Source: an uncultured Actinomycetota bacterium (GTDB lineage: Bacteria > Actinomycetota > Actinomycetes > DATJPE01). Taken from it: DNA of 64,000 nt. Made by a program: the position numbers and the translations under genes. The DNA lies in contig CAWDUP010000004.1 of assembly GCA_963805505.1 (NCBI GenBank), positions 54,088 through 118,087 on the forward strand, written 5' to 3'. Below the pieces are notes generated by a model, which saw nothing but the letters and a program-made list of their open reading frames with translations, was not told where the DNA came from and ran no database searches. Positions 13,040-29,575 of this stretch are shown here, one piece after another. Positions within the stretch are counted from its first letter, which is position 1; each line of letters starts with the position of its first letter.

Positions 13040-13041
13040 GG

Positions 13042-14645: not shown

Positions 14646-15287
14646 TCAGTCCATGCCCAGCCTGGCGCGGACGTCACGGAAGCTCCGCTCGGGATCAGTG
14701 ACGTCAAAGCTCAGCGAGGGAATCCCCAGCGACTCTGCCCCCCTGACATTGGCCGGTTGGTCGTCGACGAACAACAGGTCGCTCGGCAGGAGGGAAAGCC
14801 GGTCCAGCATCAGCTGGTAGGCGGCTGGCTCTGGCTTGAGGGCCCCTTCGACAGACCCGTCGACCACCAGGTCGACTCGACGGAGCACCTGCAGCCCGGC
14901 GACCCACTCCTCGCCGTGGAAGGCCAGCAGGTCGTTGGTGAGCACCGCCACGACAAGTCCCGACGCCTTCGCATCGCGAATCAGCTCAGCGGCCTGGACC
15001 CGGACGAGTTCGGACTCGGGTGCGTCGTAGAGCAGGCCCATGAGGCTGGTGAACTCGACGGCCCGCCCCGTCAGCGAGGCAAACTCCTCGATACGTCGCC
15101 GCCAGTACTCCCGCTCGCTGATGCCCCCCGCCTGCTGGAGCCGCCAATCTGGATCGGCATCCGGATCGAAAGGTCCGCTCCACGCCAGACTGCCCGGCGG
15201 GAGGCCGGCTCGCTTCTCACCGCCGCGGACCAACTCGAAAGGGGTACGTAGGACGGGGCCGCCGAAGTCGAGGACCAGCGCGGTCAC
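14646..15287 (-). CDS. HAD-superfamily hydrolase
   Basis: 213 aa with motif I LVLDFGGPV and motif IV FVDDQPANV, a type IA HAD. It is the first gene inside the repeat-bounded insert. Confidence 0.75.
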   Translation of the reverse strand: MTALVLDFGGPVLRTPFELVRGGEKRAGLPPGSLAWSGPFDPDADPDWRLQQAGGISEREYWRRRIEEFASLTGRAVEFTSLMGLLYDAPESELVRVQAAELIRDAKASGLVVAVLTNDLLAFHGEEWVAGLQVLRRVDLVVDGSVEGALKPEPAAYQLMLDRLSLLPSDLLFVDDQPANVRGAESLGIPSLSFDVTDPERSFRDVRARLGMD

Positions 15288-16072
15288 CGAGCCTGGCCCG
15301 GGTCTGATCTGCTGACGGAGACGCCGCGTCGGTCGAAATCGGCGTACACGACGTCGCCCGGGTCAAGAGGCACAGCAGCGGTCAGCCCGCCCGTGAGCAC
15401 GACGTCACCCTGGACGAGGCTACGTCCACGATCTGCGAGCGCCCGAACCAACCATCGCAGGGCGTCGAATGGCCCTCCCATGGCATCTCGACCCGCTCCC
15501 ACGCCACATGGTTCACCGTTGCGACGCAGCGTCACTCGGATGTCGCGCAGGTGTTTTCCCTCGTCATCGAGCGGCAGCTCTGGACCCAGAACTGCGAAAG
15601 CAGCCGACGACCCGTCGGCGGTGTTGTCCTCCAGTCGGAAGCGATAGTCCAGAAACACAGAGTCGACGACCTCCAGAGCCGCCCGCGCACTACTGACGGC
15701 TGCGGCAACTGCGTCCGGGTCGCGTTCGTCACCCTCCCGCGTTGCTCCTGCGACAAGGGCGATCTCCGGCTCGACCCGTGGGTGGAGGAGACCGGCTTCG
15801 GGCAGCACAGCCCCCGAGGTCACCACCATCGAGTCGGTGAGCGGCCCGAGGTTCGGCTCGTCGATGCCCATCTGGCGGCGCATGGCCGCGGAGGTGTAGC
15901 CGAGCTTCCACCCAACGATCCGTTCGCCTCTCTCGAGGCGGGCCTGGACAACACGCTCCTGAACGGCGTACGCCTCGTCCAGCCCATCGGGGCCGTCGCT
16001 GAGCGGCGCCTTGAGCAGGACACCCCGGCGTCGGGCGACCAGGATCGTGTCAGCGACTCGCTGGGCGTCCAT
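15284..16072 (-). CDS. 2-keto-4-pentenoate hydratase / 4-oxalocrotonate decarboxylase family (MhpD/XylJ/XylI-like)
   Basis: 262 aa with VGWKLGYTSAAMRRQMGIDEP ... EPEIALV, the MhpD-family signature. Confidence 0.8.
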   Translation of the reverse strand: MDAQRVADTILVARRRGVLLKAPLSDGPDGLDEAYAVQERVVQARLERGERIVGWKLGYTSAAMRRQMGIDEPNLGPLTDSMVVTSGAVLPEAGLLHPRVEPEIALVAGATREGDERDPDAVAAAVSSARAALEVVDSVFLDYRFRLEDNTADGSSAAFAVLGPELPLDDEGKHLRDIRVTLRRNGEPCGVGAGRDAMGGPFDALRWLVRALADRGRSLVQGDVVLTGGLTAAVPLDPGDVVYADFDRRGVSVSRSDPGQAR

Positions 16073-16084
16073 CGGCGTCGAATC

Positions 16085-16372
16085 TCAATGCTCTGGCTCA
16101 TAGATCGTCGCCCGATCGAAGCGAACGACGTTTCCGGTCCACCGGCAGGAGGCGCACCAGGTCAGAAACACCCGCTCGTCGGCGGACCAGTACTCAGTCG
16201 TGATGCCCGTCGTGAGGGATGTGCCGCACATCGGGCAGAACTTCGGCCGGTCGAGCAGATGCCGTTCGGCGTCGGGGGCGAACCACTCCCCGGGGTCGGG
16301 GAGCAAATGAGGATCGGGCGGCAGCTGACTGCTCACCGCGTTGGACCTAGCCACTGCTGTCTGCAGCCGCAC
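16085..16372 (-). CDS. Small hypothetical protein with a putative zinc ribbon (CPMCG ... CASC)
   Basis: 95-aa ORF between the hydratase and Rieske genes with two Cys pairs 22 aa apart. The start is uncertain because the track ORF overlaps the Rieske stop by 26 nt. I see no homology-level evidence. Confidence 0.3.
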   Translation of the reverse strand: MRLQTAVARSNAVSSQLPPDPHLLPDPGEWFAPDAERHLLDRPKFCPMCGTSLTTGITTEYWSADERVFLTWCASCRWTGNVVRFDRATIYEPEH

Positions 16373-17603
16373 GGGCAGCGGCCGCGTCTCGATGCAGCCT
16401 CAGCAGATCATCCTTGATGGGGCTGTAGCGCATCGACCCGCCGGTGATCCACTGGTCGGTGAAGGCGGCCCCAGCGCCGAACTTGTCTTTCTCGCAGGGC
16501 AACGTGATCACCTCGTGCTCCTCGCGGATCGTGCCGATGGGGTCCTCCCCGTCGGCAACCTTCCGCATGTTCTCCTTGAACATCTTGCGGAGCATCGCGA
16601 CACCGGCGTCGCTCCTTCCAAGGTGTTCCAACGAGCGGTCGACGATCGGGCCCTGCGAGACCCACGCCATCACATCCTGGCCCTCGACGTAGTCGGTGAT
16701 CAGGGTGCCGTCGGCTCGCTGCCACGGGTACTCGTAGACCATGGGACGGTCCTGCGGCTCCCAGCCCCCTTCGGGAGGGTGGTGAAGGGAGTAGAACAGC
16801 GTCCACGTATGCGTGTCGTCAATCGGCACCCGAATTTGCATCTGGTCGATGTACTGGCCGCCGACGCGCATGTAGAACGGGAATACCAAGGGATGCCCGA
16901 TCGCCCAGTCATCGTCCTCTTCGCTGTGGCCCTCGAGGACCCGACGCTTGATGATGCCCCATTCGAACTCGTCGAACGCAGTCTTGACGTGCTTCTTCTG
17001 AAACGACTTCGGGGCGTCGAAACCCTGCGTCTGGCCAAGGAACTCGAAGTAGTAGCCGTGCAGCCACTCCACGTGGTGCGGGTCGACCGAGTTCTCCATG
17101 ATCTGCAACCAGCTGCAGGGCAAGGTCGACACACCTACGTCACGAACTCCGTCCAGGACGAACACGTCGAAGCGCGGCAGTAGCGGGGCCGGACCAGGTC
17201 CGACATAGACCCACACCATGCCTCCCATCACTTGTGCGCTACCTGCCTTGGCCCTGACACGGTCACGAAAATTCTGGTTGTCCGCCTCGGCCGGCTGCTC
17301 AACACACGACCCATCGAAGTCGAACTTCCACCCGTGATATCCGCACCGGATGCCGTCGTTGTGGACGACCCCGTAGGTGAGCGAGGCACGCCGGTGCGGA
17401 CAGTGTTCGGCGATGATCCCGTAGCGACCCGACGCCGTCTTGTAGAGCGTCCAGTCCTCTCCGAGCAGCCGAACGGTCTTCGTCGGCCGTTCGTCGAAGT
17501 CCTGCTCGAACGCGATGGGATACCAGTAGCGCCTGAGCAGCTCGCCCATCGGCGTCCCTGGTCCGACCCTGGTCAGCTCTTCGTTCTGCTCGACGGTAAG
17601 CAT
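16347..17603 (-). CDS. Rieske non-heme iron ring-hydroxylating oxygenase, single-subunit (alpha) type
   Basis: Rieske motif CPHRRASL...CGYHGWKF, then a mononuclear-iron region DPHHVEWLHG. I place the start at ATG 17603 (MLTVEQNEELTRVGPGTPMGELLRRYWYP), overlapping the upstream stop as ATGA. No beta-subunit gene is adjacent. Confidence 0.85.
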   Translation of the reverse strand: MLTVEQNEELTRVGPGTPMGELLRRYWYPIAFEQDFDERPTKTVRLLGEDWTLYKTASGRYGIIAEHCPHRRASLTYGVVHNDGIRCGYHGWKFDFDGSCVEQPAEADNQNFRDRVRAKAGSAQVMGGMVWVYVGPGPAPLLPRFDVFVLDGVRDVGVSTLPCSWLQIMENSVDPHHVEWLHGYYFEFLGQTQGFDAPKSFQKKHVKTAFDEFEWGIIKRRVLEGHSEEDDDWAIGHPLVFPFYMRVGGQYIDQMQIRVPIDDTHTWTLFYSLHHPPEGGWEPQDRPMVYEYPWQRADGTLITDYVEGQDVMAWVSQGPIVDRSLEHLGRSDAGVAMLRKMFKENMRKVADGEDPIGTIREEHEVITLPCEKDKFGAGAAFTDQWITGGSMRYSPIKDDLLRLHRDAAAARAAADSSG

Positions 17604-19414
17604 CAGTCCTCCAGAACCGTCACGTGTCCGGTGTTGCCGTCCACTCGGATCCGCTGCCCGGTCTTGATCGTTGACGTGCCGAACGCGGTCCCAGTCACGG
17701 CAGGCAAGCCGTACTCGCGGCACACGATGGCGGCGTGACTCATCATGCCGCCCACGTCGGTGACCGTCGCCTGGATCTTGCCGAAGATCGGTGCCCAGCT
17801 AGGCGCTGTCAGGGGTGCCACCAGGATCTCTCCATCCTCCACCTCACCGATCTGGTCGGCGCTGAAGATGACGCGAGCAGGTCCCTCCACCAATCCCGGT
17901 GAGGCGGCGAAGCCCTTGAGCCCACCGTCGCCCGCATCTGACGATGACAGCCACCCTTGGACGCTGTCGGAGGTAATGCCCCAGAGCATGACGGTGAACG
18001 GTTCTGTGACGACCTCCGGGGGCTCCCCGAGCGCGGGCACTGCCTTCCAGGTCTTCAGCGCATCGACGATTCCCTTTCGTCGCTCGATCTCGCGCGGCCA
18101 GTAGTGGGGGCCGCGGGGCTTGGTTCCGACGGCCCACGCTGAGTACATGTCCCACAGCGCCTCGGGAACCTCGTCACGCTTGAGGAAGAAGACGTCGTCC
18201 GCCTCGGCGAAGAAGCCCTCCTTGACGAAGATCTCGCCGAGCCCGCGCATCTTGCGCCACAGCACCGAGTGCGCCCAATGCTCGACATAGAAGTTGTGGT
18301 TCTCCACATAGGGAAAAACTGTCCTCGACAACCCGAGCTTGCCGTCGAAGGCGGCTCTGTCGTCGTCCGTCGCCAGCAGCTCGCGATATTCGCTCACCAC
18401 CCGGTCTCGTTCGGCGTGCAGAGCCGCGATGGGGCGTGCCAGGTCCACCCCGTCGCGCACCTTGGCGATGTAGTCGCGGATGAAGCCGAACGGAATCTCG
18501 ACGTTCTCGATCCAGATCTTGTCCGAGTGATAGAAGCCCGAACCCGCCGAGAAGTTGAACCAAGGCTCGCACGAGTCCTCCCACGCGGCGAGCCAGGCGT
18601 CACCTTCTTCGGTCCCCGTCAGCGCGTCGCGCACCGACTCGGGATCGCCGGCGAAGTGCTCACTGATCCCGGACTCCACGGCCATCCTGGCGAGCTTCTT
18701 CAACTCGTCGTCGGGCCGGAACAGGTCGACGTCTACCCCGGCCACCATCTTCGCGATGGCGAGATCGGGGATGCTGGGGAACGCCTCCTTGCAGAAGCCG
18801 AAGAAATCGAGGTACGCGGCATAACCCAGGTTGAGGAACTCGAAGTGGTACTGCCACAGCTGCAGGGAAAGGTCGAGGAGTTTGTGGTACGTGGCCTGGA
18901 GGTCGTACCCGGATCCGATGCCCCGCCCCGAGGTGACCACCTCGAGGTCCTCCTTCTCGGGCAGCGGCTCAATCCGCAGCTCGGTCATTTCCTGCACCAG
19001 CGCGCGGACCTTGACCAACCACTTGTCGTATAGGTCGTCCCAGTTGCCGAAGTAGAAGCCGGCTCTTTCCATGAAGTGCGGGATCCGGGCGCCGATCTCT
19101 TCCGGGTCAGCGACACCGACAGGCGCTAGGTACGCGTAGCCGTTGAGGATGCGGAAGTCGACGCCAAGTGCTGGGGGGATCAGGTAGTGGCGGGTGTTGT
19201 ACTGGGACAGCGATGCCAGGGCGAACTCGTAGAACGTGGCATCCCAGGGCGTCATCACCTCGGGCCAGTGCACGCCGTCCTGGAACCAGAACCCCGCGTC
19301 CTCGTACTCGCGACGGTCCTCGCTGAACAACGAGGAGTAGCTATAGAGCCCCTCCCACCCCTCAGCGCCTGTTGGGGTCTCGATCTCGAACGGGCTCGGG
19401 AAACGATCGGCCAT
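17603..19414 (-). CDS. PEP-utilizing-enzyme family protein with a C-terminal swivelling phospho-histidine domain (PpsA-like subunit of a split phosphotransferase)
   Basis: 603 aa with a C-terminal signature GGMMSHAAIVCREYGLPAVTGT (PEP-utilizers mobile domain). The N-terminal roughly 500 aa has no PPDK_N domain. The gene has its own GGAGG Shine-Dalgarno 8 nt upstream of the ATG. Confidence 0.75.
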   Translation of the reverse strand: MADRFPSPFEIETPTGAEGWEGLYSYSSLFSEDRREYEDAGFWFQDGVHWPEVMTPWDATFYEFALASLSQYNTRHYLIPPALGVDFRILNGYAYLAPVGVADPEEIGARIPHFMERAGFYFGNWDDLYDKWLVKVRALVQEMTELRIEPLPEKEDLEVVTSGRGIGSGYDLQATYHKLLDLSLQLWQYHFEFLNLGYAAYLDFFGFCKEAFPSIPDLAIAKMVAGVDVDLFRPDDELKKLARMAVESGISEHFAGDPESVRDALTGTEEGDAWLAAWEDSCEPWFNFSAGSGFYHSDKIWIENVEIPFGFIRDYIAKVRDGVDLARPIAALHAERDRVVSEYRELLATDDDRAAFDGKLGLSRTVFPYVENHNFYVEHWAHSVLWRKMRGLGEIFVKEGFFAEADDVFFLKRDEVPEALWDMYSAWAVGTKPRGPHYWPREIERRKGIVDALKTWKAVPALGEPPEVVTEPFTVMLWGITSDSVQGWLSSSDAGDGGLKGFAASPGLVEGPARVIFSADQIGEVEDGEILVAPLTAPSWAPIFGKIQATVTDVGGMMSHAAIVCREYGLPAVTGTAFGTSTIKTGQRIRVDGNTGHVTVLED

Positions 19415-19429
19415 TGCCAGACCTCCGGT

Positions 19430-20500
19430 CTAGTCCTTGCGGGAGTACAGCGGGTTGACGAGCGTGCTGACGATGCTGCTCATGAGGTCGGTCGTGCCGT
19501 GCGTGACCGAGCGGTCCTTCTTGCTCCACACCGTCTCCGGCCGGGACTGAAGGAGGACTACGTTCGAGCCCTCGGGAAGGTCCGCGTCGACAGCCCATTC
19601 GATGTCCTGCGGGCAGCCGTAGTGCTTTTCTGCGGTTCGCGCGAGGCGGGCCACAGCCTGGATCTCTGTGTCAGTGATGCTGGGGGTGTTGACGCGGTCC
19701 GGGTCCACCTCCAGGAACTCGACGGCCTTCCCGTCGACGAGCCGGTACTCATGGGTCTTGGGTGAGATGGTCCGCTGGCTGACCGCGTACAGGACCTTGT
19801 CGACGAGGAAGTTGTCCGGCGTCACCTCGCCCGACACCACGCCCTCGCCGAAGCCCCATGAACTGTCGATGGCAATGGTGGACCGGTCGCCGTTGCCGGG
19901 ATTCAGGGTGAACGCGACCCCGGCAGCCTTGGGTCGAACCATCTTCTGGACCGCGACACTCATGGCGATGTCGAGGTGGGAGTAACCCATCTCCACGCGG
20001 TAGCACAGGGCGCGGTCGGTGAACAGGCTGGCCCAGCAGCGCCGTACGTGACGGCTGACGGCTTCGGCCCCACAGATCCACAGGTAGGTGTCGTGCTCGC
20101 CGGCAAACGAGGCGTCCGGCGAATCCTCACTCGTGGCTGAGGATCGCACCGCGACCGGGACGTCATCAGTCTCACAGCGGTGGCACAGGCGCGTGTAGGC
20201 GTCGGCGATTTCTTGGTCGACACCAGCGGGCATCGGCCAGGACATGATCAGGGAGCGGATCGTGGTGGCTCGCCGCGATACCTCGGGCAGGTCGTCGACG
20301 TCCAACCCGTCGAGCAGCTCGGCGATGCGATCGACGATGCCCGACTCATCCCGCGCGCGGCGGAAGGCATCGGTCGTCACCGCGAATCCTGGCGGGACAG
20401 GGAGTCCCGCCGCAACCATCTCCCCCAGGCTGGCGCTCTTGCCGCCCACCGCTGCGCGCTGCTCGGGGACGAATGCGTCGAACCACACCACCACGCTCAT
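19430..20500 (-). CDS. Pyruvate phosphate dikinase N-terminal (PPDK_N) ATP-binding-domain protein (PpsB-like subunit)
   Basis: 356 aa with GGKSASLGEMVAAGLPVPPGFAVTTDAFRR, the typical PEP synthase / PPDK N-terminal ATP-grasp. There is no histidine swivel domain in this ORF. Confidence 0.75.
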   Translation of the reverse strand: MSVVVWFDAFVPEQRAAVGGKSASLGEMVAAGLPVPPGFAVTTDAFRRARDESGIVDRIAELLDGLDVDDLPEVSRRATTIRSLIMSWPMPAGVDQEIADAYTRLCHRCETDDVPVAVRSSATSEDSPDASFAGEHDTYLWICGAEAVSRHVRRCWASLFTDRALCYRVEMGYSHLDIAMSVAVQKMVRPKAAGVAFTLNPGNGDRSTIAIDSSWGFGEGVVSGEVTPDNFLVDKVLYAVSQRTISPKTHEYRLVDGKAVEFLEVDPDRVNTPSITDTEIQAVARLARTAEKHYGCPQDIEWAVDADLPEGSNVVLLQSRPETVWSKKDRSVTHGTTDLMSSIVSTLVNPLYSRKD

Positions 20501-21370
20501 CGCGCTCCTCCCTCAACGAGTTCGGTCATTGCGTGCCTGGACCAGTCCGGGAGCTCGCCCGGTGACGGCACGTGAACCTCCTGGACCCGATTGCGGTAGA
20601 GGACCAGCGCGGTGACACCCCCGTCGATGAGGCGGACGCGGACGAACTCGGTGTTGAAGGGCTCTCCGGGGTCGTAGCCCATGGCCCAGGTGGCGAAGGC
20701 GCGGATCGGTCCGGAGTGGGTGGTGACCACGAGGGTCCGACCCGCGGATTCCTCTGCTACGCGCAAGAGCCCCGACCAGAAGCGACGGACGCAAGAGGTG
20801 GGAGGTTCGAGATAGAGCATCGGCATCGTCAGCCAATGAGTGATCGGATCGCCGCCGCCATCTTGGATGCCCCAGAACCTGTCGACCTCCACCAGCCAGC
20901 CGGGGCGCTCTCCCAGTGCTGTCCGCTCGTAGCGCTCCATCTCGCGTTGGTACTGGCGGAAGGCTGCCGTGATGTCTCGGAAACCCTCGGGGGTCCATAC
21001 CTTGAAGTTGGAGAACTCTTCGTAGGCGGAGATCTCGCCGACCTCGGCCTCACGGCCATAGAGAGACATACCGTCGAGCAGTCCTCGCTTGAGGTGCTCG
21101 GCGGTCTGCCGTGCGCGATTCGTGTCGGCGCTCGCCAGGGCCACTCGATGCCCGTCGTAGACCCGGCGCGCGATCTCCCGCCCGCGGTTGTGGGACTGCC
21201 AGGAGCCCAGTGGGGTGAGTCCTGCTTCCGAGGAGTACCCCTGAGTCTCGCCATGCCTGACGAAATAGACGTCCGTGACGACGTCGGCCGCCTGATCCCG
21301 TCGCTCCGGGACGATCTCCTTGGTCCGTGTCACCTCGGCCCATGCACGCGTGGCCGGCAGTTCTGCACCC
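20497..21370 (-). CDS. Histidine phosphatase family protein (phosphoglycerate-mutase-like)
   Basis: Catalytic motif VYFVRHGETQ with a downstream conserved core. The N-terminal boundary is uncertain: the track ORF extends to 21591 through a low-complexity region, and another frame (21050-21637) encodes a protein-like segment (LTRYRQRLAEERDRKRSR), so a frameshift is possible. Confidence 0.6.
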
Positions 21371-21647
21371 TCCCACGCTGGGCGCGCCCGTCGGTCGGCA
21401 CGTCCTGGCGTGCCGGGTCCCCGCCGTGCTGACGTTCTCGGAAGCGCCGCAAATACAACGGGATGGCGCCGGCTTCGCTTGTCGGCTCCTCTTGCGGTCG
21501 CGTTCCTCAGCCAGCCGCTGCCGGTATCGAGTGAGGTAGGCGGGCGCGTCCGGACGCTCGATACGGGGCAGCTCGGCACGAGGAGCCACACCAGCCGTGG
21601 GTTCGGCGTCGCCGTCCTTCATGCGGAAGGCGGTCACGACCCAAGCC

Positions 21648-22559
21648 TCATGAGTGCACCGTCAGGAACTTCTGGTCGACGACGCCGTCGTAGTAGAACA
21701 GCGCGCGACCCATCTCCGCCTCGGTCCAGGTGGTTGGTTCGGCATCCGGGTCAACCCAGTAATCGCCGGTGAAGACCTCGTTGCGATTGCCGCAAGGGTC
21801 GAAGAAATAGAGACAGTGGCCCCGCGTCGCGCCGTGCCGCGTGGGGTTCGTCTCAAGCCGGACGCCGTGGTACGCGCAGACGTCGGCGGCATTGCGGAGG
21901 TCGGTCCACTCGTCGACCCAGAACGCGACATGGTGCAGACCGCCGTTAGGCCCGGTGATCAGGGCGATGTCGTGTGAGCTGTGTGAGACCTCGAGCCAGG
22001 TCGCAATCTTGAATCCGTCGTCGCCGACGACCTGCTCGGTGACCCGGAAGTCCAGGACCTCGGTGAAGAACCCAGTCAGACCAGCAACATCCTCGGCGGT
22101 GAGGAAGACGTGATCGAGCCTTGGGGGCGCGATACCTACCAAGCCCAGAGGCCGGGGTGGCGGATTGGTGAGCGGGAGCAGGTTTCCGACCTGCTCCATG
22201 GCATGGACCAGTTCCATGGTGTGTCCGCTGGGCAGCTCGAAGCGCACCGACTCGCCATGCCCGGAAGCCCATTCCCCAGGTTGGAGCCGCTTGACGGCGA
22301 TTCCTCCGCTCTCGAGGCGAGACTGATACAGATCAAGGTCGGAGGCGTCCGTCACCTTGAAGCCCAGGTGCGCCAGGCCGTGGGTGGGTGCCTCGGTGAG
22401 CACGATGGAATGGTGTTGGTGCTCGTCCCAGCACTTGAGGAACACCCGTCCGGGCTCGCGGGCTGTCTCGACCATCCCGACGACCTCGGTGTAGTAGGCC
22501 GCTGCCAGCTCGAGGTCAGGCTGACGGAGCTCGACGTGCGACAGGCGAAGGATGGCCAT
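21648..22559 (-). CDS. Catechol 2,3-dioxygenase (type I extradiol dioxygenase, VOC superfamily)
   Basis: 303-aa two-domain extradiol dioxygenase with LSHVELR ... HHVAFWV ... GHCLYFFDPCGNRNEVF. Confidence 0.85.
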   Translation of the reverse strand: MAILRLSHVELRQPDLELAAAYYTEVVGMVETAREPGRVFLKCWDEHQHHSIVLTEAPTHGLAHLGFKVTDASDLDLYQSRLESGGIAVKRLQPGEWASGHGESVRFELPSGHTMELVHAMEQVGNLLPLTNPPPRPLGLVGIAPPRLDHVFLTAEDVAGLTGFFTEVLDFRVTEQVVGDDGFKIATWLEVSHSSHDIALITGPNGGLHHVAFWVDEWTDLRNAADVCAYHGVRLETNPTRHGATRGHCLYFFDPCGNRNEVFTGDYWVDPDAEPTTWTEAEMGRALFYYDGVVDQKFLTVHS

Positions 22560-23452
22560 CAGGTGTGGACCTTCATGAACCGTTCGTTGAGCTCGCCCTC
22601 GTAGTAGAAGATGGCACGCCCTACGTTGTCTTCGGTCCAGGTGATGGTCGGGAAGTCAGGGTCAGGACGGTAACCGCCGGTGAAGACCTCATTGCGCGTG
22701 CCTAGCGGGTCGAAGAAGTAGATCGTGGTCCCGCGTGTGATGCCGTGCCTCGTCGGCCCCACATCGATTTGGATCCCGTTGTAGGCCAGGATGTCCGCGG
22801 AACGTCGCACGTGATCCCAGTCGTCGAGCCAGTAGGCAAAGTGGTGGAGGCCACCGTTCGGGCCGGTGACCACGGCTAGGTCGTGGGGGGAGTGCGACCG
22901 CTCCATCCAGGTGCCGATCTGGTGGCCATTGCCGTCGAGCAGCTGCTCGGTCACCCTGAAACCCAGCACCTCTGTGTAGAACGTCGTGGCCTCGCCGACC
23001 TCCTCAGCAGTGACGAGCAAGTGGTCCATCCGAGGTGGCGCGATGCCCGGTATTCCTTGGGCGAAAGGCGGCGGATTGACCTTGGGAAGCACGCCGCCGA
23101 CGCGCTCGATGTCGCGGACCAGCTCCATCGTGTGCCCGGAGGGAGTTGCGAACCGGATGGACTCGCCCTGGCCGACGGACTCGCCCTTGCTGATGCGCTG
23201 AACCGGGAACCCGTAACGCGTCACCGCGATCTCGAACTCGGCAAGGTCATCGTCGTGGTCGACTTTGAACGCCATCAGGTCAAGCCCGACTCGTGGGGCG
23301 TAGACCAGGCGCAAGGAATGGTGGTCGGCCTCGTCCCAGCACTTCAGGTAGACCGATTCCTCGTCACGCCCGGACACGAGCATGCCCATGACCTCGGTGT
23401 AGTAAGCCGTGGCCAGGTCGAGATCGGTGACCGTGACGTCGACGTGGGCCAT
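22559..23452 (-). CDS. Catechol 2,3-dioxygenase paralog (type I extradiol dioxygenase)
   Basis: Paralogous to the adjacent gene, with MAHVDVTVTDL ... HHFAYWL ... GTTIYFFDPLGTRNEVF. I place the start at ATG 23452 or 23467; the track ORF has a spurious upstream extension. Confidence 0.85.
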   Translation of the reverse strand: MAHVDVTVTDLDLATAYYTEVMGMLVSGRDEESVYLKCWDEADHHSLRLVYAPRVGLDLMAFKVDHDDDLAEFEIAVTRYGFPVQRISKGESVGQGESIRFATPSGHTMELVRDIERVGGVLPKVNPPPFAQGIPGIAPPRMDHLLVTAEEVGEATTFYTEVLGFRVTEQLLDGNGHQIGTWMERSHSPHDLAVVTGPNGGLHHFAYWLDDWDHVRRSADILAYNGIQIDVGPTRHGITRGTTIYFFDPLGTRNEVFTGGYRPDPDFPTITWTEDNVGRAIFYYEGELNERFMKVHT

Positions 23453-23557
23453 CCGAAGCACGCCCATCGGCCACCTCGCAGTCAGACGCCTCGCGCGTCG
23501 GGGTCGGTGCCGCCGACGGTACGACGGGTCGTCCCGCATGACAGGACTACGTGCCGC

Positions 23558-24293
23558 CATGCGGGACGGCATGGTCTACGGTCGCCCGATGGAGTCACCG
23601 CGCCCCGAGGACATGCGAGCCCTGGTCGCCGAGTTCGTCCGGTCCCTCCACGCGGCCTACCTCGATCAGGCCCGGAAGCTGGCCCCAGCCGAGCGCGCCA
23701 GGCTGCCGTTACTCGCCGCTGGCGAGCTCGTGGTCGCGGCGGCCGCCGCCCGCCAGCTGCACCTCATCGCCACCAGCGACGCCTTCCCTGCTCCGCAAGG
23801 GCCCGAAGTCGTCGTGGTGGACGAACTCCCAGGGCTGACCTGGTCGCTTCGATTCTTTGACCCGGTTGTCCTGCCGGAACTCGGATTGTTGGATGACAAC
23901 GGCGAGGCCTCCGCCTCCGAGGTCCGGCGGGTCCTCGGGGTCGGGGCGATGGTCTATCACTTGTCTGTGAGTGCGGGCGGGGGCCTTTCGCCCCACCACG
24001 CGCAGCACGCGGGCACGGGACTGGCCAACCAGCATGCTGCCGCCGCTCGCGACTTCGACGCTCTGCGAGCGGCTGTCGGTGACCGCGCCGAGCTCGTCGA
24101 CGAGCTGGCCGTAGCCGAGCAGGTCGGCCTACCCAGGGCCGCGGCGCTGCTGGCCGAGGCGATCATGCCGGGAGACGACCACGTCCGCTCAGCGGCGGTC
24201 AGCGGCTCCCCGGTCGAGGTGCGTCGGGCCTTGTTGAGCGCCGTCCGCGAGCAGCGCACGGCGCAGCCCTGGGGGGCTTCGCATGGTCGATGA
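23558..24293 (+). CDS. Hypothetical Ala-rich protein, translationally coupled to the IclR regulator
   Basis: The reading frame continues up to an ATGGTCGATGA overlap with the IclR start. I chose ATG 23558 to avoid an overlap of more than 100 nt with the dioxygenase gene. I recognise no domain. Confidence 0.4.
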
Positions 24294-25101
24294 CAAGCGG
24301 TCCACAGGCGGCACGCAGGTGCTCACGAGCGTCGCCAACGCGGCACGGCTGCTCAAGGAGTTCGGTCGGGGCGGCGAGCGTGAGCTCGGGGTGAGCGAGC
24401 TGGCGCGACGGCTCGGCATCGGCAAGAGCACTGCGCATCGGCTGGTGCACACCCTCGCGAGCGAGCGGTTGCTGGAGCAGAACCCCGAGACCGGCGCCTA
24501 CCGACTGGGGCTGGTCATGCACGAGATGGGCGCCAGCGTGCAAAGCGGGATGGACATCCACTCGGCTGCCACGCCGGTCATGGAGCAGCTACGCAACCTG
24601 ACCAAGGAGACCGTGCAGATCGCGGTGCTCGATTTCCGCGAGGTGGTCTACATCGAGCGCAGAGAAAGCCCCCAGACCATCCGGCTGTTCGGTCGCGTTG
24701 GCCACCGAAACAACGCCAACTCCACCTCTACGGGCAAGGTGCTCTTGGCATTCCTGCCTCCGGAAGAGCTCGACCTTGTGCTCAAGGACTGGCGGCTGCC
24801 GCGCAAGACCCGTTTCACGGTCACGGACCAACGAACTCTGCGCACGCAGTTGCAGATGGTCCGGGCCAGGGGTTATGCCGAGAACGTCCAGGAGACCGAG
24901 ATCGGCGTCGGCTCGCTGGCAGCGCCGATCCGCGGGTCTCTGGGCGACGTGGTGGCGGCCCTGTCGGTCGCCGGGCCGGTTCAGCGCTTGGATGGCGACA
25001 GCATGCAGCGCTTCGCCCGACCCGTCATCGAGTCGGCGGCCGCCATCAGTCGGAGACTGGGCTGGCGGGATCGCGTCGCGGCGCGGGGGGGACCGGCATG
25101 A
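24283..25101 (+). CDS. IclR-family transcriptional regulator
   Basis: N-terminal HTH VSELARRLGIGKSTAHRLVHTL and a C-terminal IclR effector-binding domain. Confidence 0.85.
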   Translation: MVDDKRSTGGTQVLTSVANAARLLKEFGRGGERELGVSELARRLGIGKSTAHRLVHTLASERLLEQNPETGAYRLGLVMHEMGASVQSGMDIHSAATPVMEQLRNLTKETVQIAVLDFREVVYIERRESPQTIRLFGRVGHRNNANSTSTGKVLLAFLPPEELDLVLKDWRLPRKTRFTVTDQRTLRTQLQMVRARGYAENVQETEIGVGSLAAPIRGSLGDVVAALSVAGPVQRLDGDSMQRFARPVIESAAAISRRLGWRDRVAARGGPA

Positions 25102-25886
25102 CCTTGACGAGCAGACAAGCTGACCGGCTCGCCGACGACGTGTACCGAGCCCGGCGAACGGGAGTGGCCATCGCGCCGCTCGCCGAGGCCCATCCTGATC
25201 TCTCGGTCGGTGACGCCTATCTCGTGCAGCAGGGGGTCGTACGGCGCTACGTGGAGGACGGGGACCGTGTCGTCGGCTACAAGTTGGGGCTGACCAGCGC
25301 CCCAATGCAGCAGATGTTCGGAGTCTCCTCTCCCGACTTCGCCCCCGTCATGGCGTCGCATGTGCGGCCCGATGCGGCGGCGGTCGATGCTGCTGACTTC
25401 ATCGCGCCGAGGCTCGAGGCCGAGATCGCGCTGGTCCTCGCAACCGACCTGTCCGGGCCCGACTGCACCGCCGTCGACGTGCTCCGAGCAACCGCAGGTG
25501 CGGTAGCCGCCTTGGAGCTGGTCGACAGCAGGATCCGCGACTGGAAGATCACGCTGGCCGACACGGTGGCCGACATGGCGAGCAGCGGGGCCATCGTCCT
25601 GGGCGGGCGTGCAGTTCCCCTGGCGGACATCGACCTTCGGCTGGTCGGCATGGTGTTCAGCCGCGACGGGGAAGTCTTGGCCAGCGGCGCTGGCGCGGCG
25701 GCGCTGGGCAATCCCGCAGAGGCGGTGGCCTGGCTGGTCCGGACGCTCCACGAGCTTGGCGCTTCGCTGTCGGCGGGCGACGTGGTCATGACCGGCGCAC
25801 TCCACGCGGCCGTACCGGTGCTGCCGGGTCAGGTCTATCGGGCCGACTTCGACCGGCTCGGTCCGGTCTCGTTGCGGATTGTCTGA
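25098..25886 (+). CDS. 2-keto-4-pentenoate hydratase / 4-oxalocrotonate decarboxylase family
   Basis: 262 aa with VVGYKLGLTSAPMQQMFGV ... LEAEIALVL, the MhpD/XylI/XylJ-family signature. Confidence 0.8.
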   Translation: MTLTSRQADRLADDVYRARRTGVAIAPLAEAHPDLSVGDAYLVQQGVVRRYVEDGDRVVGYKLGLTSAPMQQMFGVSSPDFAPVMASHVRPDAAAVDAADFIAPRLEAEIALVLATDLSGPDCTAVDVLRATAGAVAALELVDSRIRDWKITLADTVADMASSGAIVLGGRAVPLADIDLRLVGMVFSRDGEVLASGAGAAALGNPAEAVAWLVRTLHELGASLSAGDVVMTGALHAAVPVLPGQVYRADFDRLGPVSLRIV

Positions 25887-26052
25887 GAAGGCTGAACATG
25901 GGATATCTCCGCGCGCTCATCGGATCGGGCAACCGCGGCACCGGCCTGATGCGGGTCGGGGCCTCCGACGTCCTCGGCCCGGTCGACGACATCTCCGCCC
26001 AGCTGGCCCGCACCGCCTGGGCGGGAGAAGGCTCGTCCTCAGGGGGTCCGGC

Positions 26053-26844
26053 ATGACCAAGGTTCGCGAGCTCGACACGGAGCCCCTGGTGCGGACGCTG
26101 ATCAGCGCGGTGCGCGACCGAACCGCGGTGCCTCCCTTGACCAACGACATCGACAACCTCGACGTCGCGACGGCCTATGTGGTCCAGGACGCTGTCGTCA
26201 ACGCGCGCGTCGCGGCCGGAGCGCAGGTGGTGGGAGCCAAGCTCGGACTAACCAGCGAGGCCAAACAGCGTCAGATGAGTGTGGACTCACCCATCTACGG
26301 CTGGCTGACAGGTGACATGCAGCTCGACACGGGCGAGGCACTGGCCTGCGGCCGCTACATCCAGCCTCGGTGTGAGCCGGAAGTGGCATTCCTCCTCCAA
26401 AGTGACCTTGAGGGAGCTCACATCACCGGTGCTCATGTGCTGGCCGCGACCGATGCGGTGTTTGCTGCCGTGGACGTGCTGGACTCGCGCTTCGCTGGCT
26501 ACTCGTTCACGTTGCCCGACGTCGTTGCTGACAACGCGTCGTCCGCGGGATTCGTCCTCGCTGGCAACGCTGTCGACCCACGCGGCATCGATCTGCGTCT
26601 GGTCGGGTGTGTGCTCGAGAAGAACGGAGAGCTGGTCGCTACGGCTGCCGGCGCGGCCGTCCTCAGCCATCCGGCTGCCTCGGTGGCGTGGCTGGTTCGA
26701 GCCCTCGCGGCCCGCGGTCGGGGCCTGCGCGCGGGCCACATCGTGATGGCCGGCGCCTTGACCGAGGCCGTCGCGGTCGCGCCGGGCGACACCATCGTGG
26801 CGCGCTTCGACCGACTGGGCACGCTCGAGATCGCTTGCCGGTGA
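26053..26844 (+). CDS. 2-keto-4-pentenoate hydratase / 4-oxalocrotonate decarboxylase family, second tandem paralog
   Basis: I place the start at ATG 26053 (MTKVRELDTEPLVRTL), followed by VVGAKLGLTSEAKQRQM ... CEPEVAFLL. The track ORF has a spurious 58-aa N-terminal extension. Confidence 0.8.
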   Translation: MTKVRELDTEPLVRTLISAVRDRTAVPPLTNDIDNLDVATAYVVQDAVVNARVAAGAQVVGAKLGLTSEAKQRQMSVDSPIYGWLTGDMQLDTGEALACGRYIQPRCEPEVAFLLQSDLEGAHITGAHVLAATDAVFAAVDVLDSRFAGYSFTLPDVVADNASSAGFVLAGNAVDPRGIDLRLVGCVLEKNGELVATAAGAAVLSHPAASVAWLVRALAARGRGLRAGHIVMAGALTEAVAVAPGDTIVARFDRLGTLEIACR

Positions 26845-26857
26845 GGAGGACCCGAAC

Positions 26858-27100
26858 ATGCCCTTGATCCAGGTCACGATGGTGGCCGGACGAACTCCGG
26901 ACCAGAAGCACGCCTTGATCCGTGGGCTCTCCGAGGCCGCCGCCGCTGCACTCGACACCCCCATCGACCGGGTCAGGGTCGCGATCTACGAGGTCTCAGC
27001 GGACGAGTGGGGCATTGGCGGTCGTGCCTACGCGCAGGTGCGGGGCGGAGCCGCGCAGCCACCTGAAGATGTCCCTTCCCGAACTACGGAGGACGGATGA
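26858..27100 (+). CDS. 4-oxalocrotonate tautomerase family protein
   Basis: 80 aa beginning MPLIQVTMVAGRTPDQKHALIRGLSEA. This has the N-terminal Pro1 after Met and the tautomerase fold pattern. Confidence 0.8.
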   Translation: MPLIQVTMVAGRTPDQKHALIRGLSEAAAAALDTPIDRVRVAIYEVSADEWGIGGRAYAQVRGGAAQPPEDVPSRTTEDG

Positions 27101-28566
27101 GCGAGCAACCGCGACTGGTCCAGCACTTCATCGACGGAGCCTTCGTCGACAGCCTCGATGGGAAGACCTTCGAGTCTGTGTCGCCCATCGACAACCAAGT
27201 CGTCGCTGTGGTCGCCGAGGGATCCACAGCCGACGCGGATCGCGCGGTCGAGTCGGCACGCCGAGCCTTCGACGACGGGCCGTGGCCACGGATGAGCCCC
27301 GGGGAGCGGCGGGCGGTTCTCTACCGCGCTGCCGCGCTGATCGATGAGCGTCTCGACGAACTGGCCGCGTGGGAGACCCTCGACATGGGCAAGCCGATCA
27401 GCGAGGCGCGAGCCAAGGACGTGCCGCGCACGGCCTATAACTTCCGATTCTTCGCCGACGTGGCCGAGCAGGCTCACAGTGAGGCCTTCCCGAAGCCGTG
27501 GGACCGCGTGCTCACCTACACCGTCCGTGAACCCGTTGGGGTGTCGGCCTGCATCGCGCCATGGAACTTTCCGATGATGCTCGAGTCATGGAAGGTCGCG
27601 CCAGCTCTTGCCTTCGGCAACACCGTCGTTCTCAAGCCGGCCGAGCAGAGCCCCGTCACCGCCTCGATGCTCGTGGAGTGCTTCGCCGACGCGGGGATGC
27701 CCGACGGCGTCTTCAACGTCGTGCAGGGCTTCGGGCCCGGCGCGGCGGGTGAGCGGTTGACGACGCACCCTGGGGTCGACCTAGTCACGTTCACCGGCGA
27801 GAGCGCGACGGGCAAGGTGATCATGGCCAACGCCGCCGCCACGCTCAAGCGGTGCTCGTTCGAGCTGGGAGGCAAGAGCGCAAGCATCGTCATGGCCGAC
27901 GCCGACCTCGATCTTGCGTTGTCCGGCACTATCGACGGCATCTTCCGCAACCAGGGCGAGGTCTGTCTGGCCGGCTCTCGGTTGCTGGTGCAGCGGCCGG
28001 TCTACGAGGAGTTCCTGGCCCGCTACGTGGCGGCTGCCGAGGCGCTCGTCGTCGGCGATCCTCGAGCGAGCGAGACCCATGTCGGGCCGATGGTCTCGAC
28101 CGAGCATCTCGACAAGGTGATGTCCTACGTCGAACTGGCGCAAGAAGAAGGTGCCAAGCTGATGACCGGGGGCGGGCGCGTGACGGACGGAGCCCTGCGA
28201 GCGGGGAACTTCATCGCGCCGACCGTCTTCGCCGACGTTGACAACACCAGTCGTGTCGCACAGGAGGAGGTGTTCGGGCCGCTGCAGGTTGTCATGCCCT
28301 TCGACACCGTTGAGGAGGCCATCGCGCTGGCCAACGACAGCCGCTACGGTCTCGCTGGAATGGTCTGGACCACCAACCTCAACACAGCCCACCGCGTCGC
28401 GCGCGAGGTGCGCACCGGCACGATGTGGGTGAACTGCTTCTTCGTCCGGGACCTGCGCGCCCCGTTTGGTGGCATGAAGGACTCTGGTCTTGGCCGTGAG
28501 GGCGGCGCCTACTCGGAGGAGTTCTTCACCGAGGCCAAGGCCGTCGTGCTTCGGTTCCCCGAATGA
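27097..28566 (+). CDS. NAD+-dependent aldehyde dehydrogenase (2-hydroxymuconic / carboxymethyl-hydroxymuconic semialdehyde dehydrogenase-like)
   Basis: 489 aa with the ALDH glutamate (FELGGKSA) and cysteine (QGEVCLAGSR) active-site motifs. It is coupled to the tautomerase gene by overlapping codons. Confidence 0.85.
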   Translation: MSEQPRLVQHFIDGAFVDSLDGKTFESVSPIDNQVVAVVAEGSTADADRAVESARRAFDDGPWPRMSPGERRAVLYRAAALIDERLDELAAWETLDMGKPISEARAKDVPRTAYNFRFFADVAEQAHSEAFPKPWDRVLTYTVREPVGVSACIAPWNFPMMLESWKVAPALAFGNTVVLKPAEQSPVTASMLVECFADAGMPDGVFNVVQGFGPGAAGERLTTHPGVDLVTFTGESATGKVIMANAAATLKRCSFELGGKSASIVMADADLDLALSGTIDGIFRNQGEVCLAGSRLLVQRPVYEEFLARYVAAAEALVVGDPRASETHVGPMVSTEHLDKVMSYVELAQEEGAKLMTGGGRVTDGALRAGNFIAPTVFADVDNTSRVAQEEVFGPLQVVMPFDTVEEAIALANDSRYGLAGMVWTTNLNTAHRVAREVRTGTMWVNCFFVRDLRAPFGGMKDSGLGREGGAYSEEFFTEAKAVVLRFPE

Positions 28567-28979
28567 GCGCTGGGATGCTGCACCGGGTCTGTCCGGCCGA
28601 GGAACTCGCGGATGGGGGCTGCCGCCGTGCCGAGTTCGAGGGTCGCGCCGTACTAGTCGCCATCGTCGACGGCGATCCCTACGCCGTTTCCGACACCTGC
28701 CTTCATCGGGAGGGCCGGCTGTCTGACGGGGTCTTCCGGGACGGCGTCGTCACGTGCCCGGAGCACTGGTGGCGTTATGACGTCACCACCGGAGCGCGGA
28801 CCGACGAGCCATCCCAGACGCTCGAGTCGTACCCTGCGCGCATTGAAGAGGGTTGGGTCGTGGTCGACTTCCCACCGGCCGAGCCGGCGCGATCACTGCG
28901 GGAGGTCCTGCTGGCGCACGCCCGTGGGCTTGAGCTCGACGCTCGCGTCACGGACCCGGCTGCAGCCAGCGACGCCTAG
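28563..28979 (+). CDS. Rieske-type [2Fe-2S] ferredoxin (oxygenase ferredoxin component)
   Basis: 138 aa with CLHREGRL ... CPEHWW, i.e. CxH...CxxH. Confidence 0.8.
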   Translation: MSAGMLHRVCPAEELADGGCRRAEFEGRAVLVAIVDGDPYAVSDTCLHREGRLSDGVFRDGVVTCPEHWWRYDVTTGARTDEPSQTLESYPARIEEGWVVVDFPPAEPARSLREVLLAHARGLELDARVTDPAAASDA

Positions 28980-29575
28980 AGGCGGTGCTTGCCCACATCC
29001 CAGCCCTTGTCACCGATCAGTTGGGAGGCTCTCGCTGTCGGCAATTCTTCCAGTGGGGTGCCGAGAGAGTCGTTCCAGCGGTTGAACACTCCGAACATGC
29101 AGACGACCCCCAGGATCTCGACGATCTCGTCCTCGGTCCAGTGCTCTGCAAGCGCCCGGTAGGAGTCGTCCGTGACAGCATTGGGAACCGACGCCGCCTC
29201 CAAGGCGAAGTCGAGCGCGACCCGCTCCTTGTCGGTGAACAGCGGGCTGGTCGGATAGTCGTAGATCGCCGCCATCTTCTGGTCATCGATGCCGTGACGG
29301 GTCGCACTGACCGTCGTATGGGCTTTGCAGTACTGGCAGCCCGAGGCAAAGCTGGCCATGTGGGCCACCAGCCGTTTGAGGCCTAGGTCGACCTGGCCGT
29401 TTGGATTGAAAACTGCCCGATTGAGCCCGATGACGGCCTTGGCGATCGCGGGCACTCGCTGCATCGTCAGAAGACTGTTGGGCACGAAGCCGAGGGTGTG
29501 CGTGAAGTGATCCAACGCCTCCGCGAGATCGGGGTCGGTGCACTCCTCCAACGGGATGGGGTCCATCCGCGCCAT
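28976..29575 (-). CDS. Carboxymuconolactone decarboxylase (AhpD-like) family protein
   Basis: I place the start at ATG 29575 (MARMDPIPLEE...). The motif SGCQYCKAHT is the AhpD-like CxxC/H. The 364-aa track ORF has a spurious N-terminal extension. Confidence 0.75.
   Translation of the reverse strand: MARMDPIPLEECTDPDLAEALDHFTHTLGFVPNSLLTMQRVPAIAKAVIGLNRAVFNPNGQVDLGLKRLVAHMASFASGCQYCKAHTTVSATRHGIDDQKMAAIYDYPTSPLFTDKERVALDFALEAASVPNAVTDDSYRALAEHWTEDEIVEILGVVCMFGVFNRWNDSLGTPLEELPTARASQLIGDKGWDVGKHRL

Follow-up and report, generated by a model that had tools for sequence, protein, structure and literature searches.

The DNA analysed here is a stretch of 64,000 nucleotides (the window) from an uncultured Actinomycetota bacterium (assembly GCA_963805505.1, contig CAWDUP010000004.1, positions 54,088 to 118,087 of the forward strand). 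On its minus strand, a nine-gene operon includes two adjacent genes for proteins of 356 and 603 amino acids (aa) that resemble the two components of the dikinases with which some bacteria phosphorylate phenols. A reading made earlier from the letters of the stretch, without database searches (the sequence-only reading), had placed this pair between a Rieske oxygenase and a histidine phosphatase, together with two catechol 2,3-dioxygenases, in one minus-strand operon, and Pfam and NCBIfam matches confirmed this arrangement. Altogether, the results given below point to an undescribed O2-dependent variant of the known 'phosphorylate first' routes of phenol degradation.

Domains, fold and family of the dikinase pair

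Pfam searches matched PF01326 PPDK_N to residues 17-332 of the 356-aa protein, which aligned with the N-terminal third of the models of phosphoenolpyruvate (PEP) synthase and rifampin phosphotransferase (Rph). The 603-aa protein gave a single Pfam match, PF00391 PEP-utilizers, at residues 526-596. Both matches agree with the earlier description of the pair as a PPDK_N protein and a partner whose only recognisable module is a C-terminal swivel domain. The phospho-His motif quoted in that description, TDVGGMMSHAAIVCREYGLPAVTGT, is present in the 603-aa protein, with His560 as the catalytic residue, and so is the GGAGG, which lies 8 nt ahead of the ATG of the 603-aa gene. The segment TDVGGMMSH(560) was invariant across 42 homologues and has Met at -2 and Ser at -1 of the His. 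No match to PF02896 PEP-utilizers_C was found in the 603-aa protein by Pfam scan, and the TIM barrel was absent by fold as well; the reading of this protein as part of a fissioned PpsA therefore fails, as had been argued when the pair was said not to be a broken ppsA.

In what follows, the 603-aa protein is called H and the 356-aa protein I. H passed the NCBIfam model PRK08296.1-2 with 864 bits (cut-off 650), a family named 'hypothetical protein'. Against the profile models of PEP synthase, pyruvate, phosphate dikinase (PPDK) and Rph, only its last ~110 residues aligned, and the swivel domain was likewise the sole part of H that aligned with solved structures by sequence. On TIGR01418 (PEP synthase), H scored 98 bits and I ~341-361 bits against a cut-off of 740, and on NF041857 (rifampin phosphotransferase), 120 and 279 bits, respectively, against a cut-off of 999. 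An AlphaFold model of H (pLDDT 81.8, pTM 0.83) was compared with solved structures by Foldseek, and Rph (5fbt) was the sole full-length match, over ~620 columns with an E value of 1e-16, a TMq of 0.6 and 18% identity; PPDK, PEP synthase and enzyme I aligned over the ~120-residue swivel domain only. When Rph proteins were aligned by sequence, they covered residues ~214-603 of H at 30-36% identity.

Previous studies described HpeHI, CreHI and PpsAB as two-component ATP-dependent phenolic dikinases, in which the H subunit combines an Rph rifampin-binding-like domain with a swivel domain and the I subunit is an ATP-grasp domain (PMC12167813). HpeH, CreH and PpsA share the motif T/SxxGGxxxH, with Met in place of the regulatory Thr of PEP synthase, and a pairwise identity of ~45% (PMC12167813). 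We obtained reference pairs by tblastn of plasmids; these were assigned by gene context, not by assay. The contexts were ppsA-ppsB-ppsC-ppcBDAG in Azoarcus KH32C; IclR, cytochrome P450, I, H, SDR, ferredoxin, reductase, HD phosphohydrolase and aldehyde dehydrogenase genes on two Rhodococcus plasmids (Cre-type); and a dikinase pair with biotin carboxylase and HAD genes in Rhizobium (Hpe/Acv-type). Identity to H was 52% for PpsA of Azoarcus KH32C, 56% for the Cre-type, 48% for the Hpe-type and 42% for a haloarchaeal protein, and identity to I was 51% for Azoarcus PpsB, 51% for the Cre-type, 44% for the Hpe-type and 45% for the haloarchaeal one. These values, together with the full-length fold match to Rph, bear out the view that PpsAB is the closest architecture and Rph a more distant one. 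In a neighbor-joining tree, H and its close relatives (at least 67% identity) formed a branch of their own, with the Cre-type next and then PpsA.

The pair thus combines a ~40-kDa/~70-kDa split, adjacent genes with their own starts, an H subunit with Rph-like helical and swivel domains, the family motif, and identities in the range of the family. Judged by sequence and predicted fold, the two proteins almost certainly form a two-component phenolic dikinase of the PpsAB/CreHI/HpeHI family.

Two observations concern the wider family. In a library of representatives at 50% identity, 678 clusters matched H at E <= 1e-30, many of them fragments, and just a few dozen matches were full-length, at 31-54% identity; the representative closest to H (P0241) is a protein of 970 aa with the H part at 361-963, apparently an Rph-like single-chain I-H fusion or else a gene-calling artefact. 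A plasmid of Haladaptatus salinisoli (L087:2416-11948) encodes a dikinase pair (42%) together with an alpha/beta Rieske dioxygenase, a metallophosphoesterase, a zinc alcohol dehydrogenase and an aldehyde dehydrogenase, and is a further uncharacterised kinase-oxygenase-phosphatase combination.

Conservation of the gene cluster

With a single genome taken for each GTDB species, a scan returned more than 532 relatives, and the best 80 loci (69-97% identity) were taken with 10-kb flanks; partner counts score only loci with sufficient flank, unless all 80 are stated. The I subunit was kept in 76/77 loci, the Rieske oxygenase in 71/73, the zinc-ribbon protein in 70/72, the histidine phosphatase in 71/76, dioxygenase b in 69/72 and dioxygenase a in 68/71. 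A divergent IclR regulator was found in 60/64 loci and the HAD phosphatase in 50/70; of 82 loci, 42 had a homologue of the Rieske-type ferredoxin. Seven genes stood in the same order in 60 of the 66 loci that could be scored, no two of which come from one actinobacterial species. The pair is strongly co-conserved with oxygenase and dioxygenase genes, as the sequence-only reading requires, and with the phosphatase gene. Across all 80 loci, with no correction for flank, genes within 10 kb encoded acetaldehyde dehydrogenase (46 loci), aldolase (46) and a Fer2/NAD-binding reductase (27), and 63 loci had a homologue of the unknown protein encoded at 23559-24293 (+). The linkage between dikinase, Rieske oxygenase, phosphatase and dioxygenase is far beyond chance.

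The best 80 loci included 17 from Nocardioidaceae, 8 from Acidimicrobiia, 6 from Candidatus Nanopelagicales, 5 from Streptosporangiaceae and 2 from Micromonospora, one each from Blastococcus, Actinokineospora, Nostocoides and Pseudonocardiales, and many from unclassified Actinomycetota metagenome-assembled genomes (MAGs). Of the two groups in which conservation of the neighbourhood had been proposed for study, the Nocardioidaceae were therefore well represented, but no Mycobacteriales were present among the best 80 loci; the Rhodococcus homologues that we found belong to the Cre-type clusters with P450. Cultured carriers of the cluster include Nocardioides sp. PD653, N. aquiterrae JCM 11813, Blastococcus jejuensis JCM 15614 and Micromonospora globispora.

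Three Rieske homologues (63-66% identity) that were picked independently of the dikinase, by the length of their contigs only, all lie together with dikinase, dioxygenase and histidine phosphatase genes, one of them in a rearranged layout. In addition, Pseudonocardia bannensis carries a second module (L001:2065-7339) with SDR, HAD (40% identical), a 64-aa zinc-ribbon protein and Rieske (55% identical) genes, divergent to a dikinase pair, the H subunit of which carries the Pfam domain Rph_4th and shares just 28% identity with that of the window. This arrangement suggests that a unit of Rieske, zinc-ribbon and HAD genes has joined dikinases of two lineages that are far apart.

Gene layout and operon borders

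The coordinates of the operon, of the divergent plus-strand operon and of the sites between and beyond them are collected in Table 1. The genes of the minus-strand operon abut or overlap, with TGATG, ATGA, TGATG and GTGA at the start/stop junctions. A TGATG joins the two dioxygenase genes, and the start of dioxygenase a is Met36 of its open reading frame (ORF), as in the 302-aa call of a closely related locus (L091). The start of the 356-aa gene overlaps the preceding stop as ATGA, the Rieske oxygenase start overlaps the stop of the 603-aa gene, and the HAD gene overlaps its upstream neighbour as GTGA.

Table 1. Features of the dikinase locus, with positions counted from the first letter of the window.
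Feature	Position	Strand	Matches and remarks
Nine-gene operon	23467 to 14646	-	dioxygenase a first, HAD phosphatase last
Catechol 2,3-dioxygenase a, 302 aa, operon gene 1	22559..23467	-	TIGR03211 376 bits (cut-off 320)
Catechol 2,3-dioxygenase b, 303 aa	21648..22559	-	TIGR03211 356 bits (cut-off 320)
Histidine phosphatase (branch 1)	20497..21637	-	PF00300 E 1e-12; broken by two 1-nt deletions
Dikinase ATP-grasp component (I/PpsB-type), 356 aa	19430..20500	-	PF01326 PPDK_N E 1e-111
Dikinase substrate-binding and phospho-His swivel component (H/PpsA-type), 603 aa	17603..19414	-	PF00391 E 2e-23
Rieske non-haem iron oxygenase, alpha-only, 418 aa	16347..17603	-	PF00355 and PF19301 (LigXa_C)
Small zinc-ribbon protein, start uncertain	16085..16336	-	four invariant Cys
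FAA-hydrolase-family protein (4-oxalocrotonate decarboxylase/hydratase-like)	15284..16072	-	PF01557; DmpH and DmpE models below cut-offs
HAD-IA phosphatase, final gene of the operon	14646..15287	-	PF00702; TIGR02247-like
Terminator-like site	14542-14528		past the HAD gene
Inverted repeat GTCCCGCATG-N17-CATGCGGGAC	23531..23567		between the divergent operons; candidate IclR operator
Conserved protein, ~229-244 aa, gene 1 of the divergent operon	23559..24293	+	without Pfam/NCBIfam family
IclR-family regulator	24283..25101	+	PF09339 and PF01614
2-Oxopent-4-enoate hydratase-like and 4-oxalocrotonate decarboxylase-like genes	25098..26844	+	TIGR03220 and TIGR03218 are the top matches
4-Oxalocrotonate tautomerase	26858..27040	+	PF01361 E 2.5e-13; TIGR00013 above cut-off
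Hydroxymuconic-semialdehyde-type aldehyde dehydrogenase	27097..28566	+	HpaE 599 bits, OH_muco_semi_DH 587 bits; both slightly below cut-offs
Rieske-type [2Fe-2S] ferredoxin	28563..28979	+	PF00355, PF13806; HcaC-/AndAb-like

Convergent on the end of the divergent operon lies a 364-aa ORF (28976-30070, minus strand) with a CMD/YciW-like peroxidase-related domain in its C-terminal half. Further out, the flanks are unrelated: ORFs of 306, 285 and 413 aa at 11265-14283 (minus strand) resemble Tad/Flp-pilus-type membrane proteins and an ATPase, and 29806-34659 and 36892-39359 (both minus strand) encode a 1617-aa NAD-specific glutamate dehydrogenase, a patatin-like lipase and a WS/DGAT acyltransferase.

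The Rieske oxygenase and the zinc-ribbon protein

The Rieske oxygenase has the cluster ligands CPH...CGYH and the iron site DPHHVEWLH...D263 (D-x2-H-x4-H...D), all of them invariant. In a phmmer search of the PDB, 7fjl and 7fhr were the top matches (E 1e-48; PDO_KF1 and RO_CH34), and isophthalate dioxygenase (IPDO) followed at E 3e-39. Its AlphaFold model (pLDDT 88.4) gave Foldseek matches to 7v25, 9ina and 7fhr at E values of 1e-26 to 1e-29 and 28% identity, which ranks the class of phthalate dioxygenase (PDO) and IPDO above NdmA, SxtT/GxtA and carbazole dioxygenase by ~11 orders of magnitude. A beta-subunit gene is absent beside the Rieske gene, and the fold is alpha-only, like that of PDO and IPDO. 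Enzymes of this class bind dianionic aromatics via arginines (PMC8649396). An invariant stretch of the window enzyme, K219-R220-R221, aligned with the PDO pocket residue Arg231, which is suggestive, but not proof, of a pocket for anionic substrates.

In the neighbouring zinc-ribbon protein, four Cys (CPxC...CxxC) are invariant and the C-terminal E(P/A)EH is conserved; searches with it against Pfam and NCBIfam gave only weak, sub-threshold matches to DZR and BsaP (biotin synthase auxiliary protein). The Rieske-type ferredoxin encoded in the divergent operon is the probable electron donor to the Rieske oxygenase.

The two phosphatases

The histidine phosphatase gene predicted in the sequence-only reading is present, with RHGET, THSG and PF00300, but the N-terminus given by ORF 20497-21591 proved spurious, the reading frame of the gene switching 0>2>1. 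In comparison with L091, an independent contig with 99.8% identity to the window across 10.9 kb, a single G is missing from the window at ~21496 and another at ~21390. The true start lies at ~21622-21637, giving a protein of ~375-380 aa; the gene is intact in L091 (380 codons) and also in a second related locus, L003. The product has an N-terminal extension of ~95 aa with the motifs LPRxERPDAPAYLTR, PLYLRRFR and RAWAEVTRTKEIVPERRDQ, which are spread over three frames in the window; the first two were kept in 70/72 loci. The catalytic motifs RHGET, NRARQTAE and THSGPIRAF are intact in the window and were conserved in >90% of 71 sequences. L091 has a 1-nt indel of its own in the HAD gene (at window position 14744). 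Since the phosphatase gene is intact in L091 and the indel of L091 sits elsewhere, the pattern is typical of assembly error, and the two deletions look most simply like errors of a long-read assembly; we considered a decaying operon with a pseudogene and rejected it on the same grounds. The HAD phosphatase showed no detectable similarity to the HpeD-like phosphatase.

Ring cleavage, lower pathway and regulation

Both dioxygenases keep the His/His/Glu metal ligands, and copies a and b are 53% identical. No hydrolase for meta-cleavage products was seen in the gene set of the window. A dehydrogenase, a tautomerase and a decarboxylase without a visible hydrolase suggest that catechol or a 4-substituted catechol is the substrate of ring fission.

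The protein encoded at 23559-24293 (+), 57% identical to its equivalent in a related locus (L002), had no match in Pfam or NCBIfam. In front of the operon, GTCCCGCATG-N17-CATGCGGGAC forms a perfect 10-bp inverted repeat. Ten related loci have its core, CCGCATG-N17-CATGCGG, just ahead of their first dioxygenase gene (e.g., L003:5853-5883 and L054:5795-5825). By its sequence and recurrence, this repeat is a candidate operator for the IclR regulator.

Proposed pathway

The best reading of the gene set is 'phosphorylate, oxygenate the phosphoester, dephosphorylate, cleave'. The operon would open an O2-dependent, ATP-primed route in which conversion to the aryl phosphate traps a phenol. The I subunit would present ATP, His560 on the swivel domain of H would take the beta-phosphate with release of AMP and inorganic phosphate (Pi), and the swivel domain would hand the phosphate to a phenolic OH bound in the Rph-like helical domain. 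We infer this kinase step from family homology; the catalytic motif itself is seen. The likeliest substrates would be phenol, a 4-substituted phenol or a guaiacol-type methoxyphenol. Assisted by the zinc-ribbon partner, the Rieske ferredoxin and a reductase encoded elsewhere, the Rieske oxygenase would act on the dianionic phosphoester and add a second oxygen to the ring. One option is ortho-hydroxylation (monooxygenation) or O-demethylation of guaiacyl phosphate, either of which would give catechol phosphate for hydrolysis by the HAD phosphatase, the histidine phosphatase or both; another is ipso/ortho dioxygenation with spontaneous loss of phosphate, for which the phosphatases would be safety valves. 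Free catechol would be opened by the two catechol 2,3-dioxygenases, and the ring-fission product would enter a dehydrogenative meta pathway of semialdehyde dehydrogenase, tautomerase, decarboxylase and hydratase.

We put the probability of this order of steps, from phenol through aryl phosphate, oxygenated product and catechol to meta cleavage, at roughly 0.6. Within it, we infer the identity of the substrate, the use of the phosphoester by the Rieske enzyme, the type of oxygenation and the division of labour between the phosphatases. The place of the oxygenase follows from the gene set: a kinase and phosphatases with no step between them would be a futile cycle, and the Rieske oxygenase is the sole other enzyme of the upper pathway, so that it should act between them, ahead of enzymes that require a free catechol. 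Both ortho-monooxygenation and O-demethylation need a phosphatase and so fit the conserved HAD and histidine phosphatases. The middle enzyme also acts on the phosphoester in the Cre and Hpe pathways, and by this analogy the proposed order matches them; HpeCBA takes only the phosphoester and not free phenols (PMC9618137).

A bolder version, argued by analogy and rather unlikely as it stands, would make the Rieske enzyme the first oxygenase specific for an aryl phosphate ester. In that version, the phosphate would serve as both anionic handle and leaving group, ipso/ortho dioxygenation would yield catechol and Pi directly, the phosphatases would be safety valves, in exact parallel with gamma-glutamylanilide in the aniline dioxygenase system, and the zinc-ribbon protein would be a required but unrecognised subunit.

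Several points weigh against the proposed order. As the best 80 loci are only the closest relatives (at least 69% identity), what the linkage shows holds for a single clade of orthologues and not for the whole family, and this clade is known here from genes, gene context and predicted structures. In the HMMER alignment, PDO Arg207 falls in an insertion and Arg244 corresponds to Ile235, in a region of low confidence, and neither arginine is conserved; thus, the anion site is only putative, and the Rieske enzyme is not a phthalate dioxygenase as such. Automated annotation at JGI names it a LigXa-type O-demethylase, and hydroxylation, demethylation and dioxygenation therefore cannot be told apart. 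Two distinct conserved phosphatases exceed the need of a single dephosphorylation step, and the gene of one of them, the histidine phosphatase, carries frameshifts in the sequence of the window. Finally, searches of the 64-kb window for an oxygenase reductase (Fer2 and NAD-binding), the acetaldehyde dehydrogenase DmpF and the aldolase DmpG found none of them, and all three must be encoded elsewhere in this lineage.

Alternative explanations

We considered whether the enzymes might not act in sequence, the kinase and phosphatases forming a cycle for the detoxification or for the retention and scavenging of phenols or catechols while the Rieske oxygenase takes the unphosphorylated compound. Dexter et al. 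propose that phosphorylation chiefly traps substrates present at sub-micromolar concentrations (PMC12167813), and the plentiful phosphatases of the cluster and its presence in MAGs of planktonic Nanopelagicales fit such a role. However, ATP would then be spent without a productive step, the enzyme that follows the kinase needs the phosphoester in every characterised pathway, and the Rieske/zinc-ribbon/HAD module accompanies two very different dikinase lineages. We regard this explanation as unlikely.

A route like that of Cre, in which the Rieske oxygenase takes the part of the P450 CreJ in oxidising the alkyl side chain of an aryl phosphate, with the ring hydroxylated later by enzymes encoded elsewhere, is suggested by the fact that the closest H outside the clade is Cre-type, at 56% identity and with the same I-then-H order, and by the aldehyde dehydrogenase of the divergent operon. 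Alpha-only Rieske oxygenases also include methyl monooxygenases of anionic aromatics, e.g., TsaM, which acts on toluenesulfonate. The core cluster, however, has no alcohol dehydrogenase, its aldehyde dehydrogenase is of the hydroxymuconic-semialdehyde type, and the solved structures closest to the Rieske enzyme are those of ring dioxygenases. Moreover, the genes conserved together here include those for two catechol 2,3-dioxygenases and a meta pathway, whereas the Cre pathway ends in 4-hydroxybenzoate. A side-chain route of this kind is quite improbable.

That the pair is a split, Rph-like resistance enzyme, which inactivates a phenolic antibiotic or xenobiotic and lies in a catabolic cluster by chance, is very improbable: Rph is the sole full-length structural match and Rph proteins align over most of H, but the catabolic dikinases, at 48-56% identity, are closer than Rph, at 18-36%, the genes overlap catabolic ones at their start and stop codons, and the linkage holds in 60/66 loci. 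Equally hard to sustain is a fissioned or paralogous PEP synthase or PPDK of central metabolism, or an anaerobic phenylphosphate synthase proper that feeds a carboxylase, since the automated name 'pyruvate, water dikinase', the ~341-361 bits of I on the PEP synthase model and the 52% identity of H to PpsA are set against the missing PEP-utilizers_C by both Pfam and fold, the 98 bits of H where 740 are needed, a window without homologues of PpcABDG, PpsC, UbiD or UbiX, and partner enzymes that all require O2.

Significance of the cluster

The sequence-only reading was not aware of any established aerobic pathway of this logic, but two have been published, Cre in 2016 and Hpe/Acv in 2022, so that its claim to novelty did not hold. 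To our knowledge, phosphorylation-initiated phenol catabolism is known from three systems only: Pps, Cre and Hpe. A dikinase with the partner set of phthalate-dioxygenase-like Rieske oxygenase, zinc-ribbon protein, HAD and histidine phosphatases, two extradiol dioxygenases and meta-pathway genes was not found in the full text of 7.7 million PubMed Central papers or in 0.34 million bioRxiv preprints, and the cluster is a fourth well-defined partner set, carried by many actinobacterial species, planktonic freshwater lineages included. Work from the Eltis group noted that most homologous kinase clusters lack a carboxylase and an assigned pathway, kinase and carboxylase genes co-occurring in 52 of 836 cases (PMC13101465), and the reason for spending ATP on the phosphorylation of phenols has been called unclear (PMC12167813).

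If the proposed pathway is true, the cluster encodes an ATP-dependent alternative to the flavin and di-iron phenol hydroxylases, the chemistry of Rieske oxygenases reaches phosphoesters, three uncharacterised conserved proteins gain a testable context, and widespread mis-annotations ('pyruvate, water dikinase' and 'DDVA O-demethylase') can be corrected. Should the Rieske enzyme be specific for an aryl phosphate, an ATP-primed 'hybrid' aerobic phenol route, widespread in soil and freshwater Actinomycetota, could scavenge trace phenolics.

Comparison with known systems

In the Cre pathway, the kinase CreHI, the P450 system CreJEF acting on the phosphoester and the phosphohydrolase CreD reportedly work in turn, with 4-hydroxybenzoate as the product; the pathway also has alcohol and aldehyde dehydrogenases, CreG/CreC. 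The system of the window shares with it aerobic operation, a two-component dikinase with the same domain split, the logic of phosphorylating, oxidising and dephosphorylating, and an IclR regulator, and the Cre-type clusters of the Rhodococcus plasmids hold the nearest outgroup homologues (H 56%, I 51%) in the same I-then-H order. The two differ in that Cre uses a P450 with ferredoxin and reductase to attack a methyl group, an HD-domain phosphatase and 4-hydroxybenzoate as its end product, whereas in the window the oxygenase is a Rieske enzyme next to a zinc-ribbon protein, the phosphatases are of the HAD and histidine types, and two extradiol dioxygenases and a meta pathway are encoded as well. 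Homologues of the P450 and the HD protein of Cre-type clusters, and of the Hpe biotin carboxylase and carboxyltransferase, were not found in the window. Cre is an aerobic route for 4-cresol in Corynebacterium glutamicum (Du et al. 2016, as cited in PMC12167813).

The anaerobic PpsAB(C) system for phenol (Thauera, Aromatoleum, Azoarcus) is similar in subunit sizes, domain split and Ser-His catalytic motif, with identities of 52% and 51% to the Azoarcus KH32C pair. The window, in contrast, has no PpsC CBS protein or phenylphosphate carboxylase (tblastn of the window with Azoarcus PpsC and PpcA/B/D/G found nothing), the order of its two dikinase genes is reversed, and its neighbouring genes are O2-dependent. 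In the Hpe/Acv pathway, hydroxyphenylethanones are phosphorylated, the phosphoester is transformed and the product is dephosphorylated (PMC9618137, PMC12167813). HpeHI/AcvAB belongs to the same family with the same H/I domain split (48% and 44% identity to the Hpe-type pair), and there too a phosphatase ends the phosphorylated stretch, but the middle enzyme is a biotin carboxylase that acts on the acetyl group, and no oxygenase takes part.

Rph (PDB 5fbt, 5hv1) is the sole solved structure that spans the 603-aa protein and has the same swivelling phospho-His mechanism; unlike the window pair, which is split over two genes, it is one polypeptide (~865 aa), it is 18% identical, and its role is in resistance. 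On the side of the oxygenase, PDO_KF1 (7fjl/7v25) and IPDO (9ina) are alpha-only, have the same Rieske and Fe ligands, are 28% identical and use dianionic aromatics as substrates, whereas the window enzyme lacks PDO Arg207 and Arg244 in the alignment, has a dedicated zinc-ribbon partner and is not accompanied by a cis-dihydrodiol dehydrogenase or a decarboxylase.

A parallel in logic is the aniline dioxygenase system, which proceeds via gamma-glutamylanilide (Takeo et al. 2013, as summarised in PMC11335346). Its proteins are unrelated to those of the window, with a glutamine-synthetase-like ligase, a glutamate tag on an amine and an alpha/beta-type oxygenase, but the sequence of events is alike: an ATP-dependent step attaches the tag, a Rieske dioxygenase turns the tagged compound into catechol, a hydrolase takes the tag off excess tagged compound, and the ring is opened by meta or ortho cleavage.

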